NCBI GenBank assembly: GCA_036172245.1
Contig: JAYWIR010000032.1
Location: 124,001 to 188,000 of the forward strand
Length of the DNA: 64,000 bases
Direction: 5' to 3'
Source of the DNA: Raillietiella orientalis
Lineage: Eukaryota
The stretch's first letter is position 1, and every line of letters begins with the position of its first letter. The position numbers were made by a program, and so were the translations under genes. Below, piece after piece: positions 15,646 through 61,370 of the stretch. A model generated the notes under the pieces. The model did not search any database. It was not told where the DNA came from and worked only from the letters and a program-made list of their open reading frames with translations.

Positions 15646-15649
15646 TATT

Positions 15650-16185: not shown

Positions 16186-17927
16186 TTTATCAACCGGAGG
16201 TGCCAGGGCACTAATTCGGAACAAATAAGAGTACATGTTACTTTCCTGTGATGAACCCAAGGGCTCACCATCCACAACAGCAAGCTAGTTGCCGGCGCAA
16301 ACACCGGTGAGGTCCATCCAACGCGCAGGCTAGGAAGAATTAAAACAAAAAACATTCAAAAGGAGAAATGTAAAGAGGCCTAAAAGTTTTTGGAGTGAAA
16401 AGAGGCGAGGATGGGATCACATTGCGCGTGAATTGGTCCTCTATATCCTATTTAGGATCCTATCGAGCTGAGTCCCGTTCACACCCAGGTGGGAATATCT
16501 GGAGAGCTTCGTTGCGAATATTCGCATCCACTGTGTGGCATTCCTGCCATTCGTGCTTCATCAACACGCTTTCCATGCTGCCACGATTCCGCGTATGCAG
16601 TACAGCACTGCTGAGGAAACGGCCGGTGGCAAGAAGGCACGGGAGAAAAGTCGCCGGAAAATGTACCTCCGTCAATGTTCAGGGTCGTAGCAAGACGATC
16701 CCAGAGGGGGCGGAGGCCGACGAATTCCACAAGAAGCAGGTGGAAGGTCTCCTTCTATCCGCACTGTGCACAAAAGGCACCCACACTCCGAAGAGTTCAG
16801 TGGGGCAGCACCGTTGCCACTGGTGTCGTGTCCGCCCAAGTGCTTCCGGTGGGACACACGTTCATGTTCCGCAGCGTGCAGCGGGTGTAGATGCCGGTAC
16901 GCAGGAAGTTGCAGGATTCTCCACTGATCTTGTTTAACTTTGTCTACGTTCCAACTGTTTCTACCAGCCATGGGCTGAAGTTGGCGGGGCTGCAGGCCTT
17001 CCATCCGTTCTCCGTTGTCAGGTTGGCCATACGTCCCAGGAGAAGTCCGCATCTTCATACTTTCCTGCCGGGGCACAGAAAAAAAGATGCGAGTCCTTCA
17101 ATCCCGGACACATGTCTGGCGAGAAATCGGGCCGGAACGCACCAAGGGGTGTTTCACATCTTCGCTGCGATGGCTAGAGTACGCCACCGCACCTGTGTTT
17201 CGACGAGCTCCATCGTCAGCACGCTAGGACCTCCGTCCCGACGTGGAGCGCAAAAGTACTTTAAAGGCACACGAGGCCTGCCTCCGCCCTACAGGGCGAT
17301 ACGTAGTAGGTCATTCGTTCTATTCTTCAATTCACGGGGTATGGGGCAGACAAAAAGCAGGGGGTGAAGGAGGAGGGATGCGAACGCGTTTCACACCGCA
17401 GCCCGTTTCGCCAAGTAGAGCTTGCCTTGCCGGAACGGACCGATCGCCAGCGATGCTTCTTGGAGGCGGACGGACCTGGCTTCTGCGGAGCAGAAAATCC
17501 CCAGCGGTACGCCAAGGTACTTGATGCACCTGCCCGTGGGAAACCACAAACGGATACAGTCGGACCGTGGAGCCCACGCGAAGTTTACGAAAATTATACA
17601 CCACTGCACCTTTTCACCTCCAGGCTCGTCCCACGGCGAGAAAACTTTAAGACATACTCAAACGCGCACGCCGGGGAGGACCCGGGGAGCAGCAGCAGAG
17701 GATCGTCTGCGTAGGCCGACACGGCAGACGCGCCGGGGTACGAGCTCGGCAGGGTAGACAGAGTATCCCTGTATGCACTCAGCACCAGCTCCAAGTAGAT
17801 GCTGAGTAGCAAGGGACTCAACCCGGTTCACTGGTCAACAAATTAAAGTTGTGTGCCGCCCTGCTCACCTCGATGACCAGGACTCTCTCGTGATTCGGCC
17901 CATCTGGTTTAAGGCGAACGTTGAAAT
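16186..17927 (-). mobile_element. LINE 3' half with an internal deletion at ~17820; host of the element ending at 17928
   Basis: SPLLLSIYLELVL...SAYADD and IKYLGVPLG. The short EN piece FNVRLKPDG at 17820-17927 is joined directly to RT motif B. 3' terminus rc CCGGTTGATAAA. Confidence 0.85.
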
Positions 17928-20873
17928 TTTTCTTACCGGGTCACGCCGAGACGTTTATTGATAAAAACTATCTGGAAAACAAATGTTTCCAGACAGCGAT
18001 TACAAATACTAAAAACGTAGATTCACCATTGGCACGCAGGCCTGATAAACTAAAGCACCTGAAAGAATGGGGGAAGGGGGGACTACAGACAAAAAAGAAC
18101 AGTCTAAATGGGAGGAATGGGGCAGGGAACTTTGGTGACGCTTTGCAGTCAAAAGAAAAAACAAAGCGGAAGCACCAAAGCACAACGGAGCGAATGAAAG
18201 GAGGGATGAGACAACAAAAATACAGTTTAAAGGAAATGAAGGTGGATCACGGGGTTGGTCGTTGGGAACCGTTGAGCATGCGGCGATGGATGCCAGTTAG
18301 CTCCTCCGTTGCGTTTTCAATCAAGTGTCGCCACCCAGCTGCCGACCTAATGAAGTCAACTGCCTTCCTGCTGACACAACATTGCAGCCCAGTGTTCTCC
18401 AGCACGTCTCGGATTGTGACGATGGCGCGGATGCAACCAACTGTCGAAATCAACGCAGCCGTCGAAAGTCCTCGCGCTTGGAAAAATCGTCGCTGCACTT
18501 CTTGGGCGGTGGCCCCCAGTGCATGGAGAGCTGCTGCACACCTCCGCCAGAGTTCCTGGAGTACACCCCAGTCCATAACAATGTGCGAGAACGACTCCAT
18601 CGCGGGGCAAAGTAGGGTACAGCCAGCCCAAAGGCAGCTCGTTGGCGCCGCTCGTTGTAGCGCAAGCGCCAGTGCAAGAAGAGCAAGACGTCTTGCTTCC
18701 ATACAAGGGAAAACACTGAACCGTCCAAACACCAGAGAGAGATTATAAGCTCCCCGGGACCAACACCAAGAGCATCTCCGCAACGAAGTAACCCCTTTGG
18801 TGTAGCACGAAGAGTGGCGTCATCCGCAATCTCGCTCTTGGCCCATTAGCCAATTAGTTTGGTTCTTTCTGCAATGATGCAGGAGAACTTTTACCTTGCA
18901 GGCTGACTACTGTCATTTCCAACCTTGAGGAAAGACAGCTCAGGCAAGGGGCGTGGCGGCCAAGGAGGAAAACTTCACCTCGTCCTCCATGACATCTTCA
19001 AGCGACCAAGTTTGGAATCCACGCAAGGGGCGAAGATCTTCACAGCTCATTTCTAAGAATGCACCCAAAGAATCCATGGATTCCTGCCGCCATGCATTAT
19101 AGTTCATTGGGCAGCAGGAAACCCACGTATTGGCTTTCAAGAGGGTGGCGATTTACCTCAACGGATAGCCAAACCCCTGTTTCTTGTGGCGCAAGACTGG
19201 CACCTAGGAAAGAAGTCCTTCACTGCCTGCACACCTCCTTAGGAGGATGCGCACAGGCGCACACAGGGGAGAGTCCATAGATCGGCACACAGTGAGAGCA
19301 TTCGGAACTGCACTTCCAGTCCGATTCTCTCCATTGTAAGAAGGCCAAGGCCAGCATCCGGAAGTGTAGCAGTGAGGTATTTCAGACGTATCCTCGATCG
19401 CGGCCTACCGCTGAGAGCGTTCCTTAACAGGGGTTTGCCCCCTTTTTGGCCGCGTAGGACGGGTCCAAGATTAATAAAAGGGGTCAGATGAGGGGGGCCA
19501 CGAAGGTGTTCCAAATAGCCGCAAGTTCCAGAAAGGTGGAATCCCCGTTAATGAACGGGCTGGCGACCAACTCTGCCTTAGGAAGGCAGTCCGACCACGC
19601 TTCGGCAGCGCCCAGGTCGCCCTACGGAACGCAAAGGTACCTGAAGTACCCTGCCCTAGGGATCCCCATGTAAATCCATTCGGACTGCTTCCCCCACGAC
19701 GCTCCTACAGAAACGACCCCGCTCTTTTTCTTGCTCACCCTCGAAGTTTAGGGAAATCTTCAAAACTGGACGTTGGGGTGGTCAAGTGGAGCAGAATCAG
19801 CAGCTCAAATGCATAGACAGTCACTGCAGGTGTTCCCGTGCAAGAGCTAAGCAGGTATTCCAGCATCAGCCTATAAGCCCTCAGCACCAAATCAAAGAAG
19901 ATGATTAAGAACAACGAGCTCCAACTGTCAACCTGCCTGTTGCCCCTGCGCACGGGAATAACGTACACGTGGCAGCCGCTGAATCAAATGCAAGTTAGCG
20001 CGTGAAGCCAGCATGCACGCAGGTAATTCAGGAGTTGCACCGGGAGACCCAGCCGTTATAAAAGCTCTAATAGGAGTCCTTGGTTTACGCAATCGAACGC
20101 CATGTGCTGGTCAACTGCGACCGCCAAGGCACCCGAAGTACCCTCCTGCCGCTTCTGTCGATACCGTGTGCCTTTGGCGGCGGCCTTGGACATGGATCTG
20201 CTTTGCTGCGCTACGCGTTCCTGCAGCAGCATCCAGGTTTGGGCAAACAGCAGGTTCGCGTCCATGGACCGCCTGAAAACACAGTAAGTCTGCTCCGGGC
20301 TCAGCAAGGACTGTGCGATTCTCCCTAGCCGCGCAACCCACATGTTGGAGAACAGCTTGACGTCCGAGTTCATCAGGGTGACCGGACTCCAGTTGCTTAG
20401 ATGGCGTCCCTCTCCACCTTTCGGCAGGGGACGCACCCACGCTAAGTGGAAGGAATTGGGGGAATCCCCAGAATCCCTTATCAACGACGAGAGGCGAGGC
20501 ACCAGGGGAACGAGCTTCCCCTTGAGCTTCGCGATGGCGGAGGAAATTTCCTCCGCCGTGAAGGACTCTTTGAGACGTGAGCGTTCCTCTTCTCTAACAA
20601 CGGGAGCATCCTGCCACAGAAGTATCTCCAATAAGATATTCATGGTAGGCGCTTCCGCGTATACCGAGGAGTAATTACTTTTTAATATGCGGCAAATACC
20701 GGATGGAGTCGAGAACTCTAGTTGTTTTTGTCGACTGAGCAAGATGCTGCATATTCTTAGTCTTGGCGCTTTCCCCTTGTATTCCGCAAGCCGGTTGATA
20801 TCAGCGAGTCTGGAAAAGGTGCTCGCCTGCAGGAAAGTCCCGCTGTTGGCGACCTCTGCTCCGCAGCCCACGG
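17928..20873 (-). mobile_element. LINE ORF2 and 3'UTR (subfamily 'Z', C-terminus QRPTP), interrupted at the EN-RT linker
   Basis: RT motifs LPKGGEGRHLSNWSPVTLMNSDVK and VDQHMAFD; 3' end rc AATAAACGTCTCGGCGTGACCCGGTAAGAAAA. Confidence 0.9.
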
Positions 20874-20874
20874 A

Positions 20875-22867
20875 AAGCGGACGTGTTTTTCCTTCGCTCC
20901 CGAAAGAGACGAAAGGAAGGCGTTTCTACTGAGTGTGGTGCTTTGTGCACATCGTTGGTGTCCGAAGGAAACCTTGCCTGAGGACACCACGGTAGAGGTA
21001 GGTGTGGGGAGGCTTGTCCACTCCAACAACCTACAGAGTCATGGGCATCCGCTCAAGAATCGCTCTCATTGCCCAAGGCGAGTATGTGGAGCACCATGGT
21101 ATCCGCGCCTAGAGCGGAAGCAATGGCCGAGAAGGCCGCTTACAAGGCAGTGGAGTATAAACCCTCGCTGGTCTATCAGGTAAGCAATTTTTTCGATTAG
21201 CGAACTGCACGCTGCTTTACGAAGGCGCTGCAGAACGCCAATGTTTTGCAGAACGTTCAGCGAGTCGGAATTGTCTGTAAAAGTCTTGGCGCAGAGTCTG
21301 ATGAGCACCCCGCTAAACTTGGATGGGCACTAGATTTCGCCAGTCACAATGGACCGCTCCGTAGTGGTCCATCTGAACAGCATCACCAACCGTATGACGC
21401 GGTCTGCGGTTGGTGATGAGTTGAAGAAATGCGGCAAGTGGCATGAGCTGTGGACTTAACCCACGAACCTTGAAGGCTACAATGGCCTTTTTGGGGACCA
21501 ACCGCTGCGCGTGTCACCGTGAAAAAAAACTGTGGTTTTCCCCACAAACTGGAGGTAGCGCCAGAGAGTGTGGACCTCTGGTAGGTGGGAAAGCCCCGGT
21601 ACTGCGGCTACTGTGATGCCGTGGGACACATTCGCAAGGGGTGTGCTAACATACAGTGCCATATGTGAAGGAAGAAGGGCCACGTTCGGCGTGTGTGCCC
21701 CAAGCGAACCACCCCGGTTCTCCCTGCCGCAAGAAAAGGGCAGGGGAAACGTGCATGGAAGATCGCAATACCTAAGGAGGAATGTGAACGGAGGAAGCTG
21801 CCAGCACTTCAACCTACGGGGTAAAAGTCGCAGGGAAAACCTTACCACGTAGCGGAAGGCGAAGAGGTCTGGAAGCTTGTAAAGGCCAAAATGCAGTAGA
21901 AGGTTCCAATCATGGAACTAGTAAGAACTAGTGTAAAACAGGCCATCACAAGGAAAAAACCCGTACCGCGCTCTAAAATTCTTCGTAAGTGCTCGGTGGT
22001 ACTTGAACGGATTGCCGTTCCTGAGGATGCCACTTGGGGCGACGAGACTCCTCTAGCCGTTTCCGCCGTGCTGGAGGTTCGTGACGGCGTTCCCTCTCTT
22101 TGCCAGAGGGTGAGCCGCGAGACGCGGGCGTCGAAAATGAGGAACCCGCGTTCGCGCAGGCGGCGGAGGAGCTCGCGGCAACGCGGGCGGAGCGCGAGAA
22201 CCCCTCGCGCAAGGCAGTGAGAAGGCCGGCTCCGGTGAAAAAGACGTCCAAAGGTGAGTACGAACTTGGGGTCGGAAGCTTATCCTTTTCTGCGGAGGCA
22301 CCCACCAGAAAGTCGTGACGCAAGTACCAGAAGCTCAGGAGGCGCCTCCCCTGCATCAACGAGGAGGAGAAGCCGGAAGGCAGCGGCAGCGTGGAATTTC
22401 AGGAGGAAGAATTCCAACGCACGGGAGCCGTGGAGAAGGTCACCACCATGGAGGAGGGTGAGCAGGGGGGCGATGTCCTCCTTGTTTTCGCCCATCATGC
22501 AAAGACCGCCCACATGGAAGAGGGCCAGCAGGTAGGCGCGACCAAACTTGGGGGTGCTCCGACCGACGCGCCAACACCCACGGAGGAGAGGGACCAGGTG
22601 CCCTCAGCACACCCCCTACTACACCAAGCGTCACGCACCAGCAGGTGGCCGACGTCGCACTACCACCTTTCCAGAATCCACACCTGGACACGCCAGTCGC
22701 CGTGGGATTCGCGCTGCCTGTTGGAATGTCAACAAGCTGCGCCACAATAGCAACAGGAGAGATACAGCCGACACCCTGCGTGAGCTCGACCTGTCCCTGC
22801 TGCAAGATATCCACGTGTCACCAAGGCGGACGTCCAGGAGATCGAGACGATCGCGAGGAGTGGGTTG
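20875..22867 (+). mobile_element. LINE 5' part (subfamily 'Y'): 5'UTR, ORF1 pseudogene and start of EN
   Basis: 5' motif aagcggacgtgtttttcc; zinc-knuckle remnant at ~21600; CWNVNKLR...LLQDIH (APE domains I-II). Confidence 0.9.
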
Positions 22868-24507
22868 TTTATCAACCGGGTGTGGCTGGACGTTCATTGG
22901 AAAACAATCCAAAAACAGCTTTTCCGGACAAAGTATACAGAGAAGACGGAGGGATCTTTGACAGGCAGGTCCGTATAACGATAGTCTGGAACCGAAAGGA
23001 GAGGATCACAAATATACTTCTATAAAAAATAAAAACAAAAATATGGAGAGCAGGGGATAGGGGTGAACGCAACAGAGTTCCTGAAGGGAAACATCCTGGT
23101 GCATTTCCAGCCATGCAACGTGTTCTGACGCCAGGATTCAAAGTTCGTTGGGCCGCAGGGGGATTCATCGCAGGGCTGCCAGGAGACGGTATAGCGGATT
23201 CATCCGGGAACCGTACCTTCTCGTGGCGAGCTCCTTATGAGTCCGATGCGACAGAAGTGCTTCCAGTGCAGCGCCGCAGGAGGAGATGCTCGGAAGCGCA
23301 CCACGGAGTGAACCATAGCTGGGCGCAAAGTGCCAGCTTGCAGAACTGTACTAGCAGTACGATCCGCCCGAGCGCCACCATGCCCAATCCTGCATCCCGC
23401 CGAGGAGCCGCCAATACCCTGAAGCAGATCCTGGAACTCCTCGGTCCCCACAAATCGTTTCGCAACAAGGGTTGCGCCAATAGCTTAGCCGAGTAAAAAG
23501 AAGGACAAACAAAAACGATGGGACGGATGAGAGTGGCAACGGAAATTTTCCACACGAAGGCCCGTTCTGACAGGAGGAACCTGCCGCTTAGGGACTGCCC
23601 TTACAAGGCCGCCAGTGCTCTCGGCACCCAGAGCACTCGCGGCCTTGTAAGGGCAGTCCAACCACGCCTTAACTGGACAGAAGGCGCCCAAGCGAACGCC
23701 AAGGTACTTCGAGCACCTGCCTGTAGGGACTCCCAGGTGCATACAGGCAGACTGCCCCTCACACGTAGAGGCAACGGGTACAACGGTTGATACCCTTCAA
23801 TTCACACTCAGGCACGCTCCCCGACGAATGAGCTCGAAGGAGCCTTCGAACAAGGACGCCAAGGCGCACATCGGTAGCAGTAGGAGAAGGTCGTCCGCAT
23901 CGGCGGCCACGGACGAAGTTCCCAGACAGGAGCTCGGCGGGATGGCCAGCGTCAGCCAGTACGCCCTCAGCACCAACTCAAAGAAAATGCTGAACAGCGG
24001 GGAGCTTAAGCTGTCTCCCTGCCTGATACCCCGCCGTATGGGAATGCCTTTCACGCTGCGCCTGCTAAAAGAGATACAGCATAACGCGTGGCGCCACCAG
24101 GAACGCAAGTAAGCGATGAGGTGCGTCGAGAGGTCTAGGCGTCCCAGAAGCTCCACAAGGAGGTCCTGGTTTACGCTGACGAACGCTTTGCAGAGATTGA
24201 CGGCGACCGCTAAGGCTTTCGGCGTTCCATCGCGCGCTGAACATCGCCGCTTGCCTTTGACAGCCGCGCTTTCGGCTACCTGGCTCTGCTGCTCCACGCG
24301 CTTCTGTAACTCGAACCATGTTCGCGCAAAGAAGACACATGCGTCCATGGACCGCCCCGGAACAGCATACGTCTGCTCCGGACTTACCAAGGACTCCGCG
24401 ATTCTATCCAGCCGCGCGAATAGCTTCGAGAACAACTTGACGTCCGAATTCACCAAGGTAATCGGATGCCAGTTACTGAGGTGGCGCCAATCCCCGCCTT
24501 TCGGCAA
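22868..24507 (-). mobile_element. Internally deleted LINE RT and 3' fragment
   Basis: PKGGDWRHLSNWHPITLVNSDVK, RRGIRQGDSLS and ADADDLL; 3' terminus rc CCCGGTTGATAAA. Confidence 0.88.
23592..23659. repeat. Near-perfect hairpin with 30-bp arms (one mismatch) and an 8-nt loop
   Basis: ggactgcccttacaaggccgccagtgctct-cggcaccc-agagcactcgcggccttgtaagggcagtcc. Confidence 0.9.
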
Positions 24508-27500
24508 GGACGCTCGCCCAGGTCGCTGCCCTCGCGGTTACAATGGGAACTTCGCCCGACAGCCCTCAGCTGCAGGCGTATGTAGCAAATGGCTACACGC
24601 CTGCACTCAGGTATAAGGTAAGTGTCCTTATGCCTGAGCGGGATGAGCGCGAGTTTGCCCAGGAACTCCAACGGATTGGAGTTCAGAAAGGCCAGCTGGA
24701 GTCCATCATGCCCATGAGTTTGTGCGGTTACTGGGAGGTTTCCAGTTAAGACGCTCTCCTTACGCAGCGTTTACTGCACACGCCGCTGCTTATTAATGGA
24801 CAGGAAATACGCTCTATCACCACGGATCAATCGTTTCTTATCCGCCTGAGTGGAGGGAGCAAGGGCCTTTCGGACCGCCAGGTCGTGAAGGCCGGCCCCA
24901 TCCGTTCACGCGCTTCGGAGGCTGCCAAATCCTGCTGAGGGTTTCGAAGACCACCACAGCGGGCTCGCGGAAGTGCGAGTGACGATAGAGGTTCTTCGGA
25001 CAATGCCCACGCGGCTGCAGGTGGATGGAATCACTGTCCGTCTGTGGTTCGCGGGGCAAACGCTTGTGTGCCCGGAATGCGGGCAGGACGGTCACCGCCT
25101 TACGAATTGTCGCTCGGCCGCTTGACGTTACTGCCACGAGCCTGGGCACACAAAAGAAACGTACTCGGAGCTCCTTTTAAAGAACGAAAAGCGAAAGAAC
25201 GAAGCACGTTTCGCATCGCGAAATAAACGCCGCGTATCGAGGAATACAAACCTGAAAACTTCCGAGAGCGTTGCGAAAACCGCGAGCGCGCATGAGGAGA
25301 AAACTCTTTGCCCCTCCACAGAAAAGGGAAGAAAAACACAAAAAAACTCGTCGCGGCGAAGCCTCAGGCTACGAAGCCGACGGAAGCTCGCGAAGATTGC
25401 AAACATTCACAGAGACCTCGCAGCGAATTTTTCAAAGCATAAGAAAGTGCGCCGCAGGGCAAGAAGCCTCCTACTGTCGGCATCGCGACCGCGAAGCTCC
25501 CTATCAAGGCCTCGGCAAGTGGCGAGGAATGCGGTCGCTCGCCCGATACGAGAAAATCGCACCCGCGGGCAAAGAAATCCGTGCCGGATAAACCTACCGC
25601 GGCCAAGGTGCACCAGGAGCCCAGTGCCGCGAAGAAACAGCCGGCAAACCCGCAGCCTTCGCGCACGCACGCAGCGCCTGCTGCGACCAAGGAAGAAACT
25701 GCCAGGGCGAGCACAATCGCTACAGCAGTGCTCCCAGCGGTCGCAAAGGCAACGCGCGAATCAACCGATCTGGAAGAGGCAGCGCCTCACGTGATCGCTA
25801 AGGGAGTCGCTAACGCCTGCGCGGAGGCAGCACTTCAAGAGGCAGCTAAGGCAGCGCCTCTTACATCCGCGGACGAAGCATAATCTCAGGATGGCAAAGA
25901 TAACTGCGACGCGAAGGAAGACGGCTCGATGCAAATAAGAAAGGAAATTAAAAAAAAAACCATCAAGGTCCTCGCAGCTCTTTGTGAAGGTGAGTGGGCG
26001 AAAGAAACCCGCGAAACCATCCCAAAAAAAGATTGCGATCCTTTCCTCCTGTGCAGTCGTCCTCTCGCGGATGAAGCGGGAAGCTGCTGCTGCGGCTAAA
26101 AGGAAGAATGTCTAAGCCGCGGTAACAGAAAGCGCTAAGAAACAGGCATCAAATGGTTTTTCCAATTCCGCGAAACTGAAGCAGCGCCTGGCAAGCGCTC
26201 GAATGTGGGATTCTGATCCAGAGTCTAACAGAATGAGCACACAGCGCGACACTCGCCCAAAACCGCACAATCGCCTCCCGAAGACCCGCAAGCGCGTGGT
26301 TCACGGAGAGGAACTGTTGCCGGGGAGCAAAGAGGAGGGAATAGGTCTCACCTCTGAGCTACCAACAACAAGCAGGGCGGCTTCCAATGGAGATGTCCAG
26401 TCTCCAAGATCTGCCGTTCTGTCTCGTGACTGCTCCCCGGACAATGCGAGAAACCAGTGCCAACCTTCCCAGCCTTAATGCAGGAAGTCACCTCTCTTCG
26501 TCGATTTAGCGTAGCCTGCTGGAACGTCAACGGGCTGCGCAGAGACGAAAAGAGGCGCGGCGTGTCAGACACCCTGCGACAATTCGACTTGGCAATCCTT
26601 CAGCAGATGCATCACATCTCCGACGCGGAGGTTGCCGAAATTTAACAGCGCGCGGGTGGCAACCTGTACTGGCGAGAGGGTTCTGCACAATCGTGCGGAG
26701 TCGGGTTTGTCGTTAATAGTACGATGGCAGGAGCGGTGAGCAGCGTTCGATTCGACCAGCAAGGGCGAATAGGCAAACTTGTACTCAAGTGTTCAGATTC
26801 AATCGACCACGTTTTGACGAACGTATGGGCGCCAAGCGGCTTTCATCGGCGCGCCGAAAGAATCGAGTTCTTCGATGTGCTAAAGAGCCAATGCTTCAGG
26901 AAATCCGGAGCCAGAATGGAACATTTCGTAGCAGCGGACTTCAACGTCCATCTGCTTTACAACGACACGAGGTCCCTGGCGGAACGGTCGTTGGTGGAAG
27001 AGGCATGCGCGTCGGTGCACGCGCGTAATTTGGAAGCCGGCGAGCCTGCACTGGAAAGGTGCGTGGATCACGTCTACTAAGATGAACACCTACTCTCACG
27101 AGTGGGAAGGAGAGGCAGGGTGCCGTCCACGTTATCGGACCATGATAGGCTGGAGTTCGAGCTACTCCCGCCGAGCTAGGGACCTCCAAACAATGTTTAG
27201 AGGATGCCGGCGGATTGGCTGAGTCATCCGGAAGCGGCGGAGCATCTTTGCCAGTTCCTTTGCGGCTTTGGCATCCGGGAACTCGCAGACTGGGACCATC
27301 TTAAAAGATCGGTTCGCGAGTTTTGCGACCGGTTCCCCCTGCACCTGCTACCACGCGGCTTCGGGGAAGGCGTGGCCAATAGCAGAGCATTTCTGCAAGC
27401 GCGCACCTTCTCGAGTCGTGCGGAAGTCCGGCAACTCGCCGAGTACAAGGCGAGGGCGGAGCACCAGGTCTGGCAGTCTGGAGTAGCTATTCTGCTCGAC

Positions 27501-30293: not shown

Positions 30294-30299
30294 TCCGCA

Positions 30300-31413: not shown

Positions 31414-31418
31414 TGGTT

Positions 31419-37274: not shown

Positions 37275-37355
37275 GCTGGCCGATCCTGACTGCCAGGCTT
37301 GCTTCTCGGCTCCCGCTTTGTATTCCGCCAGCCTGCGGATGTCGGGGGTCCTGGG

Positions 37356-44179: not shown

Positions 44180-44295
44180 AGGACGCCGCGCTCGATAAAG
44201 TCGCGGAGGAGCCCGCGGCAACGGTCGCCGCTGGCGAAGACGCGGCCTTCGAGAAAGCGGCGGAGGAGCTCGCAGCAACGCTCGCCGAGCGCGAA
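44180..44295 (+). repeat. In-frame 57-bp tandem duplication in the ORF1 tail
   Basis: DAALDKVAEEPAATVAAGE-DAAFEKAAEELAATLAERE; single-copy in the related ORF1 at ~22140-22200. Confidence 0.7.
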
Positions 44296-51228: not shown

Positions 51229-51250
51229 GCTTCGCCCAGGATTCCCGGCA

Positions 51251-52968
51251 TTACTGCAGGAAAGATGACGGTGTGGGGGAACCGGCCTCTTCCGAGGCGG
51301 GTGAGATGACCATTAGGGTTTCAGCCTCCTCAGGCACCTTGGGTACTTTTCCGGCTTCAACCCCCTCCATCTCCTCCGTGTCTGTGCGTGCTGGTCTCTC
51401 GGGTGACGATTCCCGGGATTCTCCCACGCTCATGGCACCCTCGCAGTCGGAAGTGATCTCCACGCCTTCGACCTGGAGAGGGGCTTTCCGGGATTTTCTG
51501 GAATTCCTTCCAGCCTTCCGGCGGGGTGCCGCGGAGTTGGAAACTTGGTTTCCGGACTGCGCTTCGGGGTCGGAAGTTTCCGACTCCACGGTGGAGGCCG
51601 TACGGCTAACTGCCTTTTCGCCAGCCTTGGAGGGGTCTGGCTGCAACGATGCAGCCAGCTCCTCCGCCGCACGCTCGAAGGCGGAGTCATCGATCACGGT
51701 CTCGATGACGGACGCTTCCGCCGGTTCGCTCCCCACGCTGTTGACATTTTCAACAGTGGGTTGCTCGTCGGTAGCAGCGATTTCTACCTTGCGGCGTTCG
51801 ACGGGGACGCGTTCCACGACGACGCTGCATTTTTTAAATTCTCGCTAACCTGCTGTTTTTTATTTTGGTAGGCGAGCTTTTTTTCGATTCGTCGTTCTTT
51901 CTTCAGCTTTTTTTTCTTTTTCGCTGTGACTTCTTGCCATTCCAACACCTGACCGCTTTTGTCAATCTTTTCGGCATTTGTTGCCGGGATGTCGGCTGAG
52001 GCCTGGACCACGGGAGTGGGTGGCACAGCTTGAGCGGCAGCCTTCGCCGCCAGTTTTTTCTGAAGCAGATGCGCGCGTTTTTTTAGGTTTCTTGCGGAAA
52101 CCACGCGCACAGCGGATTGTGGACACACTTCCTTCGTGTGGCCCATTGTCCCGCCTACCAGGCACTGTACGTTGGGGCACCTCCTTTTGAGGAGTCCCGA
52201 CGTGTTGCAGAAGCCACAGTATTTGGGCTTCCCCACGTACCAGAGGTCGACGCTTTCTCCGCCGACCACCAGTTTGTCGGGAAGGGTAAAGCCCTCCCGA
52301 ACGGTTACACGGGCAGCCGTGAGGCCGCACTGAACAGTGGTATAGTCCTCGAAAGGACTAGGCTTGTTCCATACTGCATGGACCGTGCCTTCTTTTCCCA
52401 ACGCGGCGCGTAACTGTTCTTTCCGCATACGCACGGTAACTCCTAAAAGGTTGACCACCATACTATGGTCCGCCGTAACGGGAAGGAGCCTGCGTGTCCC
52501 CATTACCACGGGGGTTTTAAGGAGACGTTGGGCCAGATCTGCATGTTTGCAGATCACCTCTACGTACTGCCCCCCGCTACGAATGGTCATAGCGCGGAGC
52601 TCCTCTTCTTTAACATCGAGAGCGCGCATCCCCTTCGAAAAGGCGCGCGCACTGTCAGCAGAATACAAATTTCCTACCTTGTAGAATAGTGATGGGTTAT
52701 ACCCCTCTTCCACATAGGCAGATAATTCCGCCGCGGCTGCAGGCGATGACGCCGACACGACGGCGCTCCACGCCCGCGCTGCAGCGGGGACCGGTTTTGT
52801 GGGGGCGGACGCCCCCACCTCCTTCGCCACTGAAGGCGACGTTACCGCTGCCCCCTGGCACTCCACCTTCTCTAGAGGCGACGTTGCCGCCGCCACCTGG
52901 CACTCCATTTCTTCAGGAGGCGACGGTGCCACCGCCCCCTGACACGTACTGGTGGTCGCGTCAGGCAT
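51251..52968 (-). pseudogene. ORF1 (gag-like nucleic-acid-binding protein) with one frameshift at ~51830
   Basis: Low-complexity N-terminus, AYVEEGYNPSLFYKVG domain, CGFCNTSGLLKRRC / CLVGGTMGHTKEVC degenerate knuckles, Lys-rich then acidic tail ending in TAATG. Confidence 0.88.
52810..52915 (-). repeat. In-frame ~36-bp tandem repeat in the ORF1 N-terminus
   Basis: EEMECQVAAATSP-LEKVECQGAAVTSP-SVAKEV. Confidence 0.65.
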
Positions 52969-55951
52969 TGCGGCCTGATCGACCTCCACCACACACGAAG
53001 CCTACACCTAGGGACGGTTTCCGGCACGAGGAGCACCGAGGAAACACGTCCGCTCTAGCCGACGTAAAGCTTTCGACTGCGTAAACCAGAAACTGCTTTT
53101 GGAGCTTATGTAACGCCTTGGGTTCCCGGCTCAACTCCTGCTGTATTTGCGCGCGTGCTGGCGCCACGCGCTAATTCGCATCACTTTTAGCGGCTGCCGC
53201 GTGTATGGTATTCTTGTTCGTAGGGGCATCCGACATTGCGACAGCTTAAGCCCGTTGCTCTTCAGATTCTTCTTTGAGTTCGTGCTAAGAGCATACACGC
53301 TGACGCTGTCTCACTTGCCAAGCTCCTGACCGGGAACGCCTGCCGTGGCCGCCTACGCTTATAACCTGCTTCTTCTGCTCCCCATGTTCACCCCGGCGTC
53401 CAGTGTCGAGGATTTCTTCGACCTGATTCTTCGAAGAGCGGGCGTGAGCGTGAACAGAGAGAAGAGCGTGGTCGTTCCTGTGGGTACGTCGTGGGAGGGG
53501 CAGTCCGACTGGATCCGCCTGGGGATCCCCACGGGCGGGTACTTTAAGTACCTTGGCGTTTTGTTGGGCGCTTTCGACGCAGCCGAAGCGTGGGCGGACT
53601 GTCTTCAGAATGCAGAGTTGGCCATCAGCCCGTTCTTTAACGGTAAGTTTACCTTCCATGAAACACCATTGTGGAAGCCATTGAAGCGACCATTTGAAAC
53701 ACCTTTGTGGCCCCCCTCCTCCGTCCCCTGTTTTTTGTTTTGGACCCTTCCTATGCGGCGAAACAGCGGGCTAAACGCCTGCTCAGGCACGCTCTTTGAG
53801 GTCCGGCGAGATCCAGGATCCGCCTTAAAGATTTGTTAGCTTCACTTCGGGATGCTGGTTTGGGTATCCTGACGATGGAGCGAATCGGACTGCAGGTGCA
53901 GTTCCGACTGCTGGCACTGTGTGCCCAGCTATGGACATCTCCCCTGTGTGTGTCAGCCCGCATTCTCCTGCGGAGATGCGCCGGCAGCGGAGAATTTCTC
54001 TCGCTTTTAACGGGCACTCAATACAGGAAGTGGGGTTTCGGGTTTTCATTGCGGCAGTGGACCGCACTTCTGGAAGCTCAATCATGGATCTCCTGCCGCC
54101 AAATGAACTTTGAAGCTTGGCGGCAGGAGTCCGTTGAATCCTAAGCGGCGTTCCAAGGAATACGCCCTGAAGATCTTCGCCCCCTTCGCCAATTTTTTCC
54201 ACGATCCTTGGAAGAAGTACTGCAGGACAAGGTGAAGTTTTCTACCCTGGCTGCCACGCCTCTTGCCGCAGCGCTGTCTGCCCTCAGGGCAAGAAACGAC
54301 AGTTACCAACAGGCAAGGTGGGAGGATTCCTCCACGATAGCGGGAAAAACAAAACCACTTGGCGCCTGGAAGACGAATGAGTTGGCAGACGCCGCCACTC
54401 CTCGTGTTACTGCAAAGGGACTCCTCCGGTAAGCAGAAGAACTTGCTGTCACCGCCGAAGAACTTGTAGTCCCTCCACAGTGTATTGACAGTTCGCTGCT
54501 CCCTCTTGCTTAGAAACAAGCCGTGCTGGTTTTCGTTCACTGGGGTTTTCAGTGCAACGAGCGTTGGCATCGTGACTCCGGGGGACTTGCGTCTGCAAAC
54601 TGCGTTCGGTGCGGATCGATGGAATTGATTCCGCACCTACTTCTAGACTGCGGTCTCCTACAAGGACTGTGGCGTAGGCTGGCAACAGCACTAATGCATC
54701 CCGTGGACACCGCAAGAGACTTGCTCCGACGATTCTTCACGCCGTGCGGGCTGTCACTAAGCGCAAGAATTGCAACCGTCGGTTGCATACGCGTGATAGT
54801 TTCCGTCCACCAGGCGTTGGTAATCAACGGAGAGCACCAAGAGGTAATCAGCAAAGCATCCTTCTACATTAGAGCATCCGCTAGATGGCCTCATTTGACA
54901 GAAGAGACAAAGAGGAATCTCGCCGCAATGCACCGCCGGTTTACACACGCTCAGCAGCGGCCAACCCGGTGATCATTGCAATACCCTCCATAAACTAATT
55001 TTTTATTTTCTTTTCACACCCGCGTCCCCATAGGCTCCGGAACATTTTAGGTGCCCATCGTATAAATCCCCTTGAGTACGGAGCCTATCCAAAAACCCGT
55101 TACCCCTCCCTCCAGTTTTTGATTTTTGTTTGTTTCCCTTCATTCCTTCCACGCTTCGAGCGGTTTGTTTACCAGGCCTGCGTGCCGGTAATTTTTCCAT
55201 GTTCTCTGTCGTTTTGTTGGTTGAAAACATTCTCCCTAACCAGTTTATAATTATTAATAAACGCCCCGGCGTAACCGATTGATAAATTTCAATCTCCGCC
55301 TGCTAACAGGTGAGCCCGAAACACAAGAGTACGCGATGATCGAGTTGTTCGCCGCCATGAGTGCGCGCAACTTGTTCGCGGGTGACAGGGTAATGGTCCG
55401 CAGCATCGACCACGTCTTCCTCGACGCTGACCTGTGTTCACGGGTCCGCAAACGGGAGAAGATTGCCTCCACGCAGTCGGACCATTCCCGGCTAATTTTC
55501 GAGAAGCGGTCTCGCGACAATGGACCGCTATCCAGGGACTGGCGTCTCCCCGAGGTCTGGAAGCGCCTCTCAGGTGCAAAGGTACACCTTCGCGAATACC
55601 TGAGAAGCGTCACGCTCCGGAATCCCCAGGACTGGGACCTTTTTAAGGAATCGGTCCGCAAGTTCTACGAGCTGTTCCCCCTGGATCGCCTGCCCTCCCG
55701 GATTTGGCGAGGGTGCTCGCAGCCATCGAGCCTATTTAAAGGTTCGTCGTTACGAGAGAACCTTTAATGTCCGTCGCTTGGCCGAGTACCGCGCTGGGGC
55801 CGAACGCCAAGCCTGGCAAGCCGGGTCGGCCAGCCTGCTAAGCGATCAGGGTCGGGAATGTTCGTCCCCGGCGTAGGTACGGCATCTCGTGCGAAGTTTT
55901 TATTCATGCCTCTACGCAAGGACGCCTCCGTAACAAGATGCCTTTCGGCGG

Positions 55952-56932
55952 TTGCTCCAGGATGGTGCCCCTGCAATAGGGGAAGAGGAGTCGGTAAGCC
56001 TCGACGAGCCTTTCACTACCGGCGAAATTCTCGCCGGTATCAAAAGGCTCAAGAGGCGTAAGGCGTCAGGGGAGGACGGCTTGCCCTCGGAGTTCTTTCA
56101 GCGCTTCGCGGAAGAGCTTGCCCCCTTGCTGCTCGTGTTGACAAGGCTGATCCGAGACGAAGGCGATGTTCCCGCCTCGTTTCGATCAGCCAGAGTGAGG
56201 CTCCTTCCGAAAGGGGGGGACCTCAGGAAATTGCACAACTGGCGTCCGATCACCATCGTGAACACGGACGCCAAGTTGCTAGCAGGGCTATATGCTTCGC
56301 GTTTGGGGCAGGTGGCAGAGTCCATAATTAGCCCGGAGCAGACCTATCCTGTTCCCGGGCGAAGTATGGACGCCAACCTCTTCTTCGCAAGAACGTGGAT
56401 GCACCTGCAAAGGAGAGAAAAGAAAGGGAAAGGGAAAATCGGCAACTCCACATTGAGTCCGCCAGCGGGGCTGAGAAGGGACCCCGGGGCGGGGAAGGGG
56501 GCCCTAGCGATCGCAGTCGATCTCCATAAGGCGTTCGACTGTGTAGACCAGGAGCTCCTCTTAGAGCTCCTGGGTCGTATGGGCTTCCCACTCTCCTTGA
56601 TATGCTACCTGCAACCTTGCTGGCTGAATGCGATGATTACCGTCTCTTTCAGCGGGCACAAGGTGTCTGGCGTGCCAATGCGGCTGGGTATCAGGCAGGG
56701 CGATAGCTTGAGTCCCCTGCTCATCAGCACCTACTTTGAGTTGATGCTGAGAGCCCACATGGTGACTTTGGCCCCCTTGCCGAGCTCGTGCCCCGGCACG
56801 CCCGCCGTAAGTGTTTATGCCGAAGATCTTCTGCTCCTGTTACCTATGTCCATCCCGGCGAAGGCGGTCGGAGATTTCTTCGACCTGCTCAACCGCGGGA
56901 CCGGACTGCAGGTGAACAGCGCGAAGTCGTAA
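55952..56932 (+). pseudogene. ORF2 RT domain of Y
   Basis: KASGEDG, NWRPITIVNTDAK, DLHKAFDCV, GIRQGDSLSP and YAED (mutated YADD). Confidence 0.92.
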
Positions 56933-57569
56933 GTGGTGCCAGTTGGTGCGGCGTGAGCAGGGCAGCAGGACTGGGTCCGTTTGGGGATTCCCACGGGGAG
57001 GTACATCAAGTACCTTGGTGTGCCGTTGTGGGACTTCTCCCCTGCGGAAGCGTGGTCCAGCTGCCACCAAATAGTCGAGACGGCGATCGGCCCGTTCCTG
57101 GAAGGCAAGTTTCACTTGCCGGAACGGGCCGCGGTTTGGAACGCCTTTGCGGCCCCCATCCTCCGCCCCTTGCTTTTTGTTTGCCCTGCCCCAGGAGTTG
57201 TTAAAATAGGACGTAAGACCTCCTCCGCATCGTCCTTTGGGGCAAGGGGAGGCCCCGATTCCCTTTGAAGGACCTTTGCGCTTCCCGACTTAATGGCGGA
57301 CTTAACCTCCTGACGCTGGAGCGCCTGGAGAAACAGCTGCGATATAATACCCTCGCCATCGCAGTGAAGATGTGGAGCATCCCGTGGTGCATTCCGGCTC
57401 GCCTCTTCGCCAGTCGTGTGTCCCGGTGCGAGGGACTCGCGTCTTTTCTTCTGTGCCCCGGCCGGAAGATCAGAAGATGGCATGGGCGCATGGCATTGTT
57501 GGTCATAAAGAACAGGTTTGCTGCCCCGCCAACTCCTCCGCCTGGCTGGAGGAGAACATCGGAACGTGG

Positions 57570-58406
57570 GCAGTGGTGAATCAGAAAATCCACATAACGT
57601 GGAATCGTCTCCGATGCAGCCATTACGCCCGCTGCATTCTGAGGAATCTCCTGGAGAATCCAGCTAGGAGCACGTGGGCAGAGACAACTTGCCTGGATAC
57701 GGCACTGCTTTTCCTGAGAAGGGTGCTTCACAGCAGTCGGACGTCAAGGTGGCAAGCCTCCTTCTTCATCGAGGGACATGAGAAGAGAATGAGCGGCTGG
57801 AACATGGGTCAAGTGGCGGACGCCACGACCCCGAGCGCCCAGCTGCGAGGACTAAGAAGATGGGGAGAGCTGCTGGCCATCCCTATGGATGTGCTGAAGT
57901 GGCCTCCGCTTCTTCAGGAATCCAGGATCCTGCCCCTTAAGTGGAAAGAGTCGGCGTTGCTGTTGTTGCATTCGGGTTTACCCTGCAACGCACGCCGCTC
58001 CCACTGGACAAGAGGAGTTGTGGATCCTGCGTGTGTCAGGTGCGGAGAGCGGGAATCGCTCTCCCACCTTATTGTGGACTATGCTGCCCTTCGTCCCCTT
58101 TGGGAACGGTTTAAGACGATCCTCGGTCTCCCAACGGGCAGTTCCCCTAGAGACGTTCTTCGGCCCCTCTTCGTGAAGGACGCCCTGCAGCCAGCCGCAG
58201 CCCTTGCAGCCTTGTGCTGCGTCCGAGGCATCGTGGCGGAATGCAGCGACACCAACAAGGAAGGAGTGGGTCAACACGCGAGTGATGTCATCCCATATGC
58301 CCAACGCTTTTTGCGGAGAGCTGCTGGATGGCCCAAACTGGGGAATATACGGATGGACCTCGAGGGCTTCCTTCAACGGATGGGCCCTCCTCTCAGCGAA
58401 CAGTGA
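57570..58406 (+). pseudogene. ORF2 C-terminal region with a zf-RVT-like Cys/His motif
   Basis: LLHSGLPCNARR...CVRCGERESLSHLIVDY. Start is approximate. Confidence 0.8.
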
Positions 58407-58618
58407 TCCCTTCCCTGCCCTCCAACCTATTTGGTTCGTTTCCGTTTTTGTTTTTATTTTTGTTTTTCCCCATCCCCTTTCGCTGCCGGGGAGTGCCACG
58501 CCGGGCTGCGTCCCAGCGTCCCGGTAGGTCCCGTGTATAAGGCCATGAGCGGGCCTGGTACCGCGATTGTAGAGTTTGTTATGATTAATAAACGCCTCGG
58601 GCGTATCCGGGTGGCAAC

Positions 58619-58715
58619 TTTAAATCCCCGGGACAGGCGGTGCAAAGGGAAATCCTCGCAGAACTCGCGGACCGAGACCTTCATGAGGACCCAATCATCG
58701 AGATTGCGGAGCGTC
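58619..58715 (-). mobile_element. 97-bp sliver of host element X trapped between two insertions
   Basis: Translates as TLRNLDDWVLMKVSVREFCEDFPLHRLSRGF, the sequence expected immediately upstream of RGFGEEARNERAY at 42877. Confidence 0.88.
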
Positions 58716-58735
58716 GAGCGGACGTGTCTTTTCGT
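58716..58735 (+). promoter_or_regulatory. Conserved LINE 5'-terminal motif GAGCGGACGTG plus pyrimidine tract, a putative internal promoter element (also at 10826, 20875, 31419, 42886, 45249 and 53055 on -)
   Basis: The same motif sits at the 5' junction of seven otherwise divergent elements. Promoter function is inferred. Confidence 0.6.
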
Positions 58736-61338
58736 TGCTCCTGAGTTTCATTTCCGTTGGTGCTTGTGCGTGGTGTGGGTGGAGGATTAGGCAGCAATGC
58801 CTGATACCACCACCGATGAGCGGGGGCGATGACCTCATTGCCCCCGGAGGAGATTTAGGTGGAGGCTCCCGCATCAGTGGAGGCTCCCGCCAGCACTGAT
58901 GCGCCCCCGGCCCTACCCAGGACTTGGAACGCCGTGGCTGCAGCACCTACGCCAGCGGCTATGGCGGAAATGCGCGCTTACCTGGAGGAGGGGTATAACC
59001 CACCCCTTCTATATAAGGTAGGAAGTTTATATTCTCCCGAGAACGCGCGCGCCTTTTCGCAGGCGATGCGCGTACTCGGTGTACAAAAACAGGAGCTTCT
59101 GGCTATGTCCTTCAGAAGCGGGGTTCAATTTGTGGAAGTTATCTGCAAGGAGGCAACTCTTGCGCAGAGACTTCTGCGAACCCCCGTAATTATGGGCAGC
59201 CGGAGGCTTCTCCCAATTACTGAAGACCGGTCGGTGATCATTCACCTGGCCGGTATCACATTGCGGATGACGAAGGAGGCCGTCCGGAACGAATTAGAAA
59301 AATTTGCAACTGTCCACGCGCTGTGGGGAAAGCCTACTCTTTTTGTCCATTACGACGGGGTGCTTGGCGGCCTGGGTTCAGCGCGAGTGACGGTTCGCTA
59401 GGGATGTGAGTTTCCCCACAAACTCAACGTCAACGGTGAATCCGTTGACGTGTGGTACGTGGGGAAACCCAAGTTTTGCGGCTGCTTCAGCAGCTTTGCT
59501 CACCTTAAAATGAGGTGTCCTAGCGTGCAGTACCAGCAATGCAAACAAGCGGGGCACACCCGTCTGGTGTGCTCCCAAAACACAGTCCGCGTCGTGTCCG
59601 CGAAAAACGCGAGAAAGCGCGCGGCAAAAAAGAGAAAGAAGCTGTCAGCTCGTACTGCTGCTAAGGAGGTCACATCCTCCACCAAGGCGAAGGCCAGCCC
59701 CGAGACCCCACCGAAAAACGCCGAGAAGGTCGAGGGCGAGGGTCAAGAGCCAGGGTGGCAGAAGATCGATCCCAAGAACAACTCCCATAAGAAGGGAAAG
59801 AACGTGGCGAAACGGAGCGAAACCGCTCTGCGCCGCGAAAAAATTAAAAGCTGCTGTGTCGTTGTAGAGCGGATTCCCGCCATCGACGAATGCGGCGCTA
59901 AAGAACTCGCTGCTGCCCCTGCTCAACCCTCCGTTGACAAAGTCAACAAGCAGGGGAGCGAGGCGGCGGCGTCCGTCATCGAGCCCACGCTCGATGACGT
60001 CGCCTTCGAGTGCGCCGCGTAGGAGCTGGCTGCCTCGTTGCAGCCGGTTGCCCCCAAGGCTGGCAAGAAGGCCGTCAGGCGTCCGGCTTCCCCTCAGGAG
60101 TCGGCCACTTCCGACCCCGAGGTGAAGGCCGGAAACACAGCATCCATCTCCGCGGCACCCCGCAAAAAGGAAGGACGAAAGTCCACAATGCACCGGAAGA
60201 TCATCTCTCTCGACGAAGGGGAAGAGATGGCTTCCGGTAGCGAGGGTGCCATGAGCGTGGGAAACTCCCGGGACCCGTCGCCCGAGAGAATTACACTCTC
60301 GGACACGGAGGGTATGGTGAGGATGGAGGCTGAACAGGTACCCCATGCGCCTGAAGAGGCCTCCGTCCTCGTTCCGATGGTCCTCGTACCGATGGACCTT
60401 TCCTACACCTGCCCCGCGGCAGGTGCCGCGACGCCACTTTCCCAGCCATAATGCCGGGAATCGCCTCTCGCCGTCGCCTTCTGATCGCCTGTTGGAACGT
60501 GAACGGGCTAAGCGACGACGGCAAGAGGCGTGACGTGGCCGCCACCCTGGCATCCTTTTACCTGGTGCTGCTGCAGGAGATCCACGTGATCTCCGCAGAT
60601 CAAGCCCGGGAGATCGAACGGATCTCGGGTGGGCGGCTGTTGTGGCGTTGCGGCACCGCGAAATCAAGCGGTGTCGCCTTCCTGCTCCGACCAGCCATCG
60701 AGGCCGCAATAAAGGACGTTCGGTCTGATGACGCCGGTCGCGTCGGTCAGGTGACTCTCAGCTGGTCCGACTCAATCGACCTGGTCGTCACCAAGCTGTA
60801 CGCTCCTAGCGGTAAGGATGCGTTGAGGGCGAAGGCAAGAAGAGAATTCTACCTTTCCCGCGGACGCGATTGGCTTATCGAAGCAGGTGTTCGCAAAGCG
60901 CACCTGATCGCGGGTGATTTCAATCTGCGCCTGCTTTCAGATGAGCCGGATACACTGAACGACCGCGTCAACGAGTTGTGCGCAGAAATGAACACGCGCA
61001 ACTTGTTGGCCGGGGACACGGCCATGAAAAGCAGCATCGATCACGAGTACCTTAATCAGCACCTATGCTCTCGGGTGGGCAGGCGCGGCAAGGTACCATC
61101 CGAGTTGTCGGACCATGGTCGGATGATGTTCGAAGTGCGTCCGCGCGACAAGGGCCCCCCCTCGTCAGCGTGGCGTCTGTCAGAGGACTGGCTGAAGTTT
61201 CCCGACGCGGCGGAGCACCTCCGCGCGTTTATTCGGAGCTTCAGGATGCAGACACTTCAGAACTGGGACCGCCTCAAGCGGTCGGTCGAAGAGTTCTGCG
61301 ACCAGTTCCCCCTGCATCGCCTACCTGAGGGATTTGGG
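58716..61338 (+). mobile_element. LINE 'V' 5' half (5'UTR, ORF1 58797-60451, EN 60451-61338), interrupted at EGF^G
   Basis: 5' gagcggacgtgtcttttc; knuckles; TAATG at 60449; WNVNG, QEIH, LYAP, AGDFN, IDH and SDH. Confidence 0.93.
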
Positions 61339-61370
61339 GTTTCCACCCGGGTACGCCCGGGGCGTTTATT
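61339..61370 (-). other. Conserved LINE 3'-terminal module AATAAACG plus stem-loop (also at 58587, 55256 and 30265 on +; 48965, 39953, 34508, 22868, 17928 and 11936 on -)
   Basis: AATAAACGC-CCCGGG-CGTA-CCCGGG-TGGAAAC, with variants at every 3' junction. Confidence 0.8.

Follow-up and report, generated by a model that had tools for sequence, protein, structure and literature searches.

Three sister LINE lineages probably target different ORF2 sites of their own clade in a nested locus of Raillietiella orientalis

Introduction

The question raised by this locus is whether retrotransposons that insert into their own kind do so wherever they can, or at places that they recognise. It concerns a stretch of 64,000 nucleotides from Raillietiella orientalis (assembly GCA_036172245.1, contig JAYWIR010000032.1, positions 124,001 to 188,000 of the forward strand), hereafter called the window. 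Of this, 53 kb (10.8-64 kb) form a nest of long interspersed nuclear element (LINE) copies of the apurinic/apyrimidinic endonuclease (APE) type, similar to L1 and Tx1. An initial annotation proposed that the insertion junctions in the nest fall on only three sites in the second open reading frame (ORF2) of related LINEs, each used in one orientation by one subfamily. Our reading is that the region is probably a nest built by successive target-primed reverse transcription by three sister LINE lineages, each nicking a preferred ORF2 sequence. The interpretation first offered is partly supported: it was right in outline, and overstated on the exclusivity of the sites and on their being the most constrained motifs.

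Insertions at three sites in ORF2

Sixteen insertion junction events were resolved, and nine of them lie on three sites: four events of the Z type at the FN codons of the endonuclease motif GDFN, two of the W type at the reverse transcriptase (RT) motif KAFD, and three of the Y type at a motif in the linker, GF^G. The three sites take 7 of the 10 recognisable 3' junctions and 2 of the 6 junctions known from a 5' end only, those of elements M and S. The 3' ends of the Z-type elements Z2, D and C (17926/7, 30288/9 and 55286/7) stand directly 5' of TTCAAY, the FN codons, in the sense of the host. Those of the W-type elements A and W (34507/8 and 48965/6) adjoin the antisense of AAGGCGTTCGAT, which encodes KAFD, and those of the Y-type elements E and K (58621/2 and 61339/40) adjoin the antisense of GGATTT or GGATTTGGG at GF^G, at positions 3-4 nt apart. 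The 5' junction of M (20871/2) lies in GF^G of Z2, no more than 1-3 nt from the point at which E adjoins G, and the 5' junction of S (~30307/8) comes right behind the FN duplication left by D, giving a tandem pair. Every canonical insertion interrupts the ORF2 of its host.

Three insertions have both ends in the window (C, W and E), and all three carry target-site duplications of 6-12 bp: TTYCAATC for C in E (8-10 bp, imperfect), AARGCKTTCGAY for W in C (12 bp, 9/12 identical) and AAATCC(CC) for E in G (6-8 bp). Once C, W or E is removed together with one copy of its duplication, the host alignment is colinear with uninterrupted relatives. The exact junctions first given for two of the sites, GD^FN and DLHKAF^D, had to be moved, each being displaced by its duplication. 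Among the copies in the window that retain a given site, FN is occupied in 3 of 7, GF^G in 3 of 8 and KAFD in 2 of 10. The targets had been taken for the most constrained motifs of the clade. In 15-nt windows of an eight-copy ORF2 alignment this is so for KAFD (percentile 97.5-98.8) but not for FN (74-95) or GF^G (81-85).

The inserting elements sort by site. A tree of the RT sequences resolves three clades, Z (D, N, C, Z2), W (A, W) and Y (E, H1, J, K, G, Q), with support of 100/100 for Z, for W and for W plus Y; more than half of the columns are empty in the rows of H1, J and Q, and the branching inside Y is poorly resolved. Only one RT clade inserts at each site, and permutation of the labels gives p = 2/210 for the seven 3' junctions and p = 1/1260 for all nine events. 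The claim of a fixed orientation and one inserting subfamily per site is borne out.

Chance, independence and selection

Could the shared positions be accidental? Our chance model lets insertions fall uniformly on a 5.8-kb element in either orientation, and counts a pair as coincident if its members lie within 4 nt in the same orientation. Among the ten 3' junctions, five coincident pairs are seen where 0.035 are expected (Poisson P 4e-10; none of 2,000,000 simulations reached five), and among all 16 events there are ten pairs against 0.09 expected. Chance is excluded as the source of the shared sites. The clustering that was first described therefore stands, although not as a restriction to only three sites, with 7 of the 16 events elsewhere.

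These figures bear directly on the idea that targeting is regional only, for example to centromeric chromatin as has been proposed for Zepp and ZeppL, with positions shared by chance or through a weak nick preference. Such targeting would suit the sharply bounded, LINE-only and GC-rich character of the block (GC content 0.51-0.61 between 12 kb and the window end, against 0.39-0.45 over the first 10 kb), and it would suit the scattered positions of the seven remaining events. However, it has to contend with the exclusion of chance, with the fixed orientation and single clade at each site, and with duplications that fall at the same nucleotides, and we regard it as very unlikely.

A different explanation would have a few ancestral chimeras multiplied by segmental duplication, gene conversion or composite retrotransposition, with the recurrent junctions as their copies. 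The hosts at each site argue otherwise. At FN the host X2 is W-like (80% identical to A) whereas M and E belong to Y; at KAFD, H1 belongs to Y and C to Z; and at GF^G the hosts are Z2 of the Z clade, G of the Y clade and F, which is W-related. Host flanks are less alike than the inserts that they carry, at 66.7% against 76.7% identity for A and W and 65.2% against 80.6% for E and K, the filler nucleotides and exact junction offsets vary from event to event, and by nesting order the events differ in depth. The chimera explanation does find some room in Z2 and C, the oldest Z pair, whose host flanks (66.0%) and inserts (61.9%) are about equally diverged and both low, and recombination or conversion does occur in the nest, as the mosaic element W shows with 96% identity to A over 434 nt but 83% in the rest of its length. 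Because same-site hosts are of different clades and less alike than their inserts, and the filler differs, the events are independent, as the initial annotation held, and not copies of one chimera; this alternative is already largely refuted here and we consider it extremely improbable.

The lineages that share a site have been separate for some time. The ratio of nonsynonymous to synonymous substitution (dN/dS) is 0.30 between E and K, which share GF^G (dS 0.55), and 0.20 between C and D, which share FN (dS ~1.0); for other pairs it is 0.31 (A and F) and 0.27 (A and E), and for the recent pair A and W it is 0.94. Purifying selection (dN/dS 0.2-0.3) acted while the lineages that share a site drew apart, and the choice of site is therefore a stable trait of the lineage.

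A model of the insertion process

The model we favour is that three co-existing sister lineages of one APE-type LINE clade would build the nest by successive target-primed reverse transcription. Z would nick the antisense strand opposite GAT^TTCAAY, and so end up in the sense orientation just 5' of the FN codons. W would nick the sense strand after AAGGCGTTCGAT (KAFD; after ...TTCGAT) and Y would nick the sense strand at GGATTT(GGG) (GF^G), both ending up antisense, and a second nick 6-12 nt away would give rise to the duplication. The positions of the first nicks were placed from the target-site duplications. As the target sequences encode conserved residues they would persist in every clade, so that any copy could become a landing pad; a copy would be inactivated when hit, and the nest would grow inward with the youngest elements innermost. 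We infer that the endonuclease domain sets the site, possibly aided by read-through RNA that carries the target sequence.

The element ends are what target-primed reverse transcription leaves behind: a fixed 3' end, variable 5' truncation and filler, and target-site duplications. The 3' ends consist of AATAAACG, a short GC hairpin and an A-rich end of 0-5 A, and poly(A) is absent from all ten recognisable 3' termini. At the 5' end stands GGACGTG, with a few filler nucleotides before it that vary among the copies, and at least eight elements retain their 5' termini. Both terminal motifs had been described initially and both are present, but the stem-loop fares less well: of nine termini tested against shuffled sequence, only that of W folds better (z -3.4).

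Several apparent termini were set aside. Antisense coding stretches at 61226-61233(-), 37506(+) and 15649(-) imitate the 3' terminal motif, with a AATAAACG-like sequence and a GC hairpin; they encode RTFIRSF of the linker and AEFYQCFAA of the N-terminal RT region, both conserved, and produce false 3' ends in motif scans. The apparent terminus at 15649(-) is such a false positive, the antisense of the coding sequence AEFYQCFAAKLVY. A supposed separate repeat, the 'T unit' (24503-25418, 30455-31413 and 13395-14105), is the ORF1 region of D-like Z elements, and the GGACG inside it is coding sequence and not a 5' terminus. A near-palindrome that the 3' end of C (GATTGATAAA) forms with the C target (TTTCAATC) is absent from Z2 and D and was treated as coincidence.

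Homing by read-through 3' extensions has been reported for elements of the R1/R2 type, and an RNA-templated process of this kind would place less of the burden on the endonucleases. They would be only loosely specific, and the 3' host extension of a read-through transcript would anneal to the same sequence elsewhere and prime reverse transcription. In its favour, every canonical copy has behind it the same 8-12 nt, which would be able to pair with the primer strand, poly(A) and any obvious complementarity of the mature 3' end to the primer are lacking, and the elements reside inside other transcribable elements. On the other hand a correctly placed nick would still be required, the duplications of fixed length and position point to two defined nicks, and the off-site elements G and N carry normal 3' ends with no canonical flank. 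Co-transcription with the target is described in PMC4494074 as strengthening specificity. We think homing of this kind unlikely as the main process, while giving it real weight, and retain site-specific nicking by the three lineages as the better account.

Evidence from a related genome

Contigs from a public run of a related genome (X1), with 0.19 of the words shared with the window, hold two further joints. One contig of 3,755 nt matches 45219-48964 with 166 differences. The first joint links the 5' terminus of W (53051), through 14 filler letters unlike those in the window, to an E-like host from the K codon of KAFD (56528), and in the second an E-like endonuclease runs up to 44969 and there meets a Z 3' end (55285) of opposite strand; M and N adjoin at this very position. 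Both joints fit recurrent targeting, although such contigs do not amount to a census, and only these two were used, with caution. Most of the X1 joints listed (e.g., 53568 to 57067 and 50405 to 57186) link homologous positions of different copies and were rejected as mapping artefacts.

Events away from the sites and the limits of the argument

Several observations weigh against site-specific targeting by three lineages, or limit how far it can be taken. Seven of the 16 events lie off the three sites: those of N (22868/9), G (39949/50), H1 (31415/6), F (58714/5) and Q (17821/2), the junction at 38710/1, and that of a short Z-like element at 11936-12909. Counted by type, 2-3 further Z-type, three further Y-type and one W-related insertion occurred elsewhere, and the notion of an exclusive site for each lineage has to be given up. 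With 7 of 16 events at other positions, the specificity is either a preference or varies within a clade. The target of M in Z2 reads GGCTGC, not GGATTT. The endonucleases of K, G, M-right and S lie outside the window, so that site was matched to RT clade and not to endonuclease clade, and the stretches 10.8-17.8, 22.9-24.5 and 38.7-39.0 kb are mapped in part only. All the evidence comes from one 64-kb window and the contigs of the one run X1; these contigs may in part be orthologues of junctions just outside the window, and the X1 joint at the 5' end of W could be the far side of the insertion of A in H1. With 'partitioning', 'safe haven' and 'knock out competitors' the initial annotation interprets evolution beyond what one window can tell, and these terms are to be put more weakly than they were.

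It would be logical to suppose that the off-site events are look-alikes or later rearrangements. At least G sits at a look-alike of the canonical Y target: directly at the junction, 6 of 9 positions of the G target GGACACGGG agree with GGATTTGGG, which we estimate to be a coincidence of about 1 in 100. Some other off-site junctions may be deletions rather than insertions. The endonuclease of F, which went to another site, is 66% identical to that of A.

The elements and their relatives

From 10.8 kb onward, open reading frames (ORFs) in six frames on both strands match the Pfam families Exo_endo_phos, RVT_1 and, weakly, zf-RVT, with hits spread over 23.8-63.7 kb. The endonuclease domain scores above the Pfam cut-off in four ORFs (E 1.5e-14 to 1.8e-7) and is of the APE type, its structural matches in the PDB being exonuclease III and the LINE-1 endonuclease. 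RVT_1 is above the cut-off in six ORFs. The two zf-RVT scores, 21.4 and 18.6 bits, stay below the curated cut-off of 27.5, and the same family (PF13966) is present in most of the best full-length protein relatives. Element A has its RT ORF next to the endonuclease ORF, downstream of it and in the same frame. The ORF1 of the elements carries two CCHC knuckles. In elements E (43480-44589) and C (46008-47246) this ORF1 is followed, ahead of the endonuclease, by an additional long open frame of 370 and 413 aa, for which Pfam gives no match; H1 and M contain a related stretch.

Comparison of the window with itself finds many copies 64-83% identical and one stretch of 434 nt at 96%. The closest proteins in a large database are two fragments only, P0001 (67%) and P0123 (62%), and the full-length relatives, L1/Tx1-like ORF2 proteins from ticks, lizards, frogs, plants and others, are ~30% identical, from which we conclude that the elements form an isolated clade of APE-type LINEs. 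Both fragments read straight through KAFD and thus contribute no junctions. Rfam matched nothing in the window, and a protein atlas returned generic RT clusters only. A metagenome scan with an alignment query matched 595 pattern stretches and confirmed none, and a scan with P0001 gave seven loci (L001-L007) that are 22-61% identical over short segments, none of them of this clade.

Comparison with known systems

The published systems are compared here from excerpts of the papers cited. LINEs of the Tx1 clade have fixed sites in other transposons: Tx1L inserts into the piggyBac-type Tx1D, Tx1-Mar into Mariner-N4_AMi, and Tx1-8_Crp and Tx1-4_AMi into long terminal repeat retrotransposons (PMC4494074), and targeting of transposons by this clade is also treated in PMC4640811. 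Like the elements of the window, they are APE-type and insert with nucleotide-level, orientation-specific precision into a multicopy mobile element (PMC4494074). The short interspersed nuclear element partners of Tx1-clade LINEs also show tandem insertions that sandwich a duplication (PMC4494074), to be compared with D and S. The best full-length matches of the window RT are L1/Tx1-like ORF2 proteins with zf-RVT, at ~30% identity. The trait of target-sequence-specific insertion is found here in 9 of 16 events, although the specificity is not absolute. In contrast to the Tx1 cases in these excerpts, where unrelated transposons are hit, the elements here enter the ORF2 coding sequence of siblings, LINEs from their own clade, and three sister lineages use three different sites.

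The ribosomal DNA of many copies hosts a guild of LINEs, in which R1, R2 and relatives each occupy their own conserved site in the rRNA genes. As in the window, several lineages have one fixed site and orientation each in a conserved multicopy sequence; unlike there, the shared resource here is the coding sequence of the LINEs themselves, and a hit disables a relative and not a copy of a host gene. The specificity of the rDNA elements is ascribed to the endonuclease, aided by co-transcribed target RNA, and the endonuclease specificity of R1Bm is the subject of PMC1919474.

Self-nesting also has precedents. Zepp in Chlorella and Coccomyxa and ZeppL in Chlamydomonas form clusters by inserting into existing copies (PMC3446292, PMC8226300, bioRxiv 10.1101/2022.06.16.496473), and they resemble the nest as L1-type LINEs in localised, GC-rich nested clusters. 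They differ from it in that Zepp carries poly(A), listed as (A)n in Table 3 of PMC3747384, where the elements here have none, and in that Zepp arrays consist mostly of 5'-truncated 3' ends, while at least eight elements here keep 5' termini. Fixed ORF2 sites and a division among lineages are not described for Zepp or ZeppL in the excerpts, which do not cover the original Zepp papers. Cnl1 of Cryptococcus inserts preferentially within itself and so gives nested arrays (PMC9942834); it shares LINE self-insertion with the window, but it is one family in tandem orientation at subtelomeres, whereas here three lineages, two of them antisense, insert at coding motifs. In a full-text literature search, with partial coverage of papers and none of the original Zepp papers or Repbase reports, sister LINE lineages with different fixed ORF2 sites of their own clade were not described. 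The nest is best read as a variation on Tx1/R1-like site-specific targeting combined with self-nesting like that of Zepp and Cnl1.

A broader idea, which is possible although we would sooner expect it to fail, is that such LINEs form a self-sustaining 'ecosystem' of long-lived sister lineages that are mutual obligate parasites. Their endonucleases would be tuned to ORF2 DNA held by purifying selection (FN of the endonuclease active site, KAFD of RT motif A and the linker motif), every active copy would present landing pads and would eventually be disabled, and a LINE-only domain would grow from a single seed and might serve as a centromere-like block. By analogy, the logic would parallel that of homing endonucleases and inteins in conserved active-site codons, here between retrotransposons. 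Quite apart from this broader idea, targeting by three lineages, if it holds, would offer a natural set of closely related APE endonucleases (~50-65% identical) with three different, strand-specific DNA targets, from which sequence recognition by LINE endonucleases could be learned and which could help to engineer targeted integration. The locus would also be a clear case of competition or hyperparasitism among transposon lineages that works through target choice and not through host silencing, and would illustrate how a single seed insertion can lead mechanistically to a nested domain made of LINEs only, as at some algal and fungal centromeres and subtelomeres.

Map of the nest

The copies were mapped with two elements rebuilt by removal of their inserts and two W copies as references, together with protein probes (tblastn). 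From outside to inside, X2(-) holds Z2(-), which holds M(+), which holds N(-), D(+) and S(+); S holds H1(+), which holds A(-). On the right J(+) holds G(-), which holds E(+) and F(+); E holds C(+), which holds W(-), and F holds K(-). Fragment J may continue H1.

The left edge of the nest is L0 (10829-11935, +), the leftmost LINE copy, with GGACGTG at 10829 and an ORF1-like region (tblastn match of the W ORF1 at 10986-11887); no LINE similarity is seen further left. Antisense in its ORF1, at a non-canonical site, lies the short, internally deleted Z-like element (11936-12909, -), with the 3' terminus AATAGACG...GGGATAAAAA, a 5' CACGTCC at 12903 and a Zc match at 12667-12808. Q (16803-17821, -), a 5'-truncated RT fragment of the Y clade, adjoins X2 106 nt after FN, at a non-canonical site unless the junction is a deletion, which it may be. 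X2-right (17822-17926, -) is W-like host endonuclease from the FN codons on, 80.2% identical to the A endonuclease (tblastn, residues 179-214 of that protein; sequence TTTCAACGTTCGCC). Z2 of the Z clade (17927-20871, -) follows with its 3' end adjoining FN of X2 in sense, and its own GF^G is cut by M.

M-left (20872-22868, +) is Y-type and runs from the 5' end, with GGACGTG at 20879, to the N-terminal part of the endonuclease; it lies antisense at GF^G of Z2 and is 77% identical to E-left. N (22869-24513, -), a 5'-truncated element assigned to the Z clade by the RT tree, has its 3' end (terminus AATGAACG...CCGGTTGATAAA) antisense at 'GGRL^Y' of the M endonuclease, a possible fourth recurrent site. 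D (24514-30288, +), also of the Z clade, has an ORF1 with CCHC knuckle, endonuclease and RT; its 3' end adjoins FN of M in sense and its 5' junction is lost. N and D stand head to head, joined at their 5'-truncated ends with ~10 nt of overlap, and 281 bp of M between the two target positions are missing. The arrangement has the look of a single complex event, in which opposite strands primed two cDNAs, or of a later deletion.

The remnant M-right (30289-30307, +; TTCAATCCGCATTAGCG) is the FN duplication between D and S. S (30308-31415, +), represented by its 5' part, is a second Z-type element resembling D, with which it shares the FN site in tandem; it is 81% identical to the 5' part of D (ORF1 by tblastn at 30385-31065) and interrupted by H1. 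H1 (31416-34507, +), Y-type, has its 5' end in the inter-ORF spacer of S, in sense and at a non-canonical site, and is cut after DLHKAFD. Most of its endonuclease is deleted: at 33294-33305 ~486 nt (reference positions 1937-2423) are missing, spanning both 'GGRL^Y' and FN, which may be the scar of a lost insertion. A (34508-38710, -), of the W clade, has its endonuclease at 37359-38357 and RT at 36168-37355, and its 3' end lies antisense at KAFD of H1. Between the 5'-truncated end of A and J is a fragment of ~250 nt with a Z-like 5' region and the start of ORF1 (38711-38962, +), encoding SPDEAELLAYAAHGYKPAL.

J (38963-39949, +), recognised by self-comparison, mapping and the RT tree, is a Y-clade fragment of C-terminal RT and the host of G. 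G-right (39950-42875, -), of the Y clade, extends from the GF^G duplication copy to the 3' end; the latter, antisense to J, falls within the J zf-RVT region, at the look-alike described above. Then come E-left (42876-45250, +), a full-length Y element from its 5' end to the FN duplication, antisense at GF^G of G, and C-left (45251-48965, +), a full-length Z element from its 5' end to KAFD, in sense at FN of E and covered by the X1 contig over 45219-48964. W (48966-53065, -), of the W clade, has both termini and lies antisense at KAFD of C with the 12-bp duplication. It is followed by C-right (53066-55286, +), which starts with the KAFD duplication copy and completes C up to its 3' terminus, and by E-right (55287-58621, +), which likewise completes E, starting with the FN codons. 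G-mid (58622-58714, -), 93 nt of the G linker ending in ...GGGGATTT, separates the insertions of E and F. F (58715-61339, +), W-related, comprises 5' end, ORF1 and endonuclease; it lies antisense in G ~90 nt upstream of GF^G and has its own GF^G cut by K. K (61340-64000, -), of the Y clade, has its 3' end antisense at GF^G of F and runs off the window.

Compared with A (34508-38710), W carries an internal deletion of 1.5 kb for the endonuclease and the N-terminal part of RT, equivalent to 36756-38277 in A. The 434 nt that are 96% identical to A lie at 51240-51673, and this mosaic suggests template switching or gene conversion between W copies.

To the left the nest begins abruptly at the 5' end of L0. 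In the flank 1-10800 none of the 18 ORFs of at least 100 aa has a Pfam domain above the curated cut-off, and similarity to LINEs is absent. This AT-richer flank contains an inverted repeat, 1-390 and 2129-2518, of 390 nt at 93% identity, which may be the terminal repeats of another mobile element.

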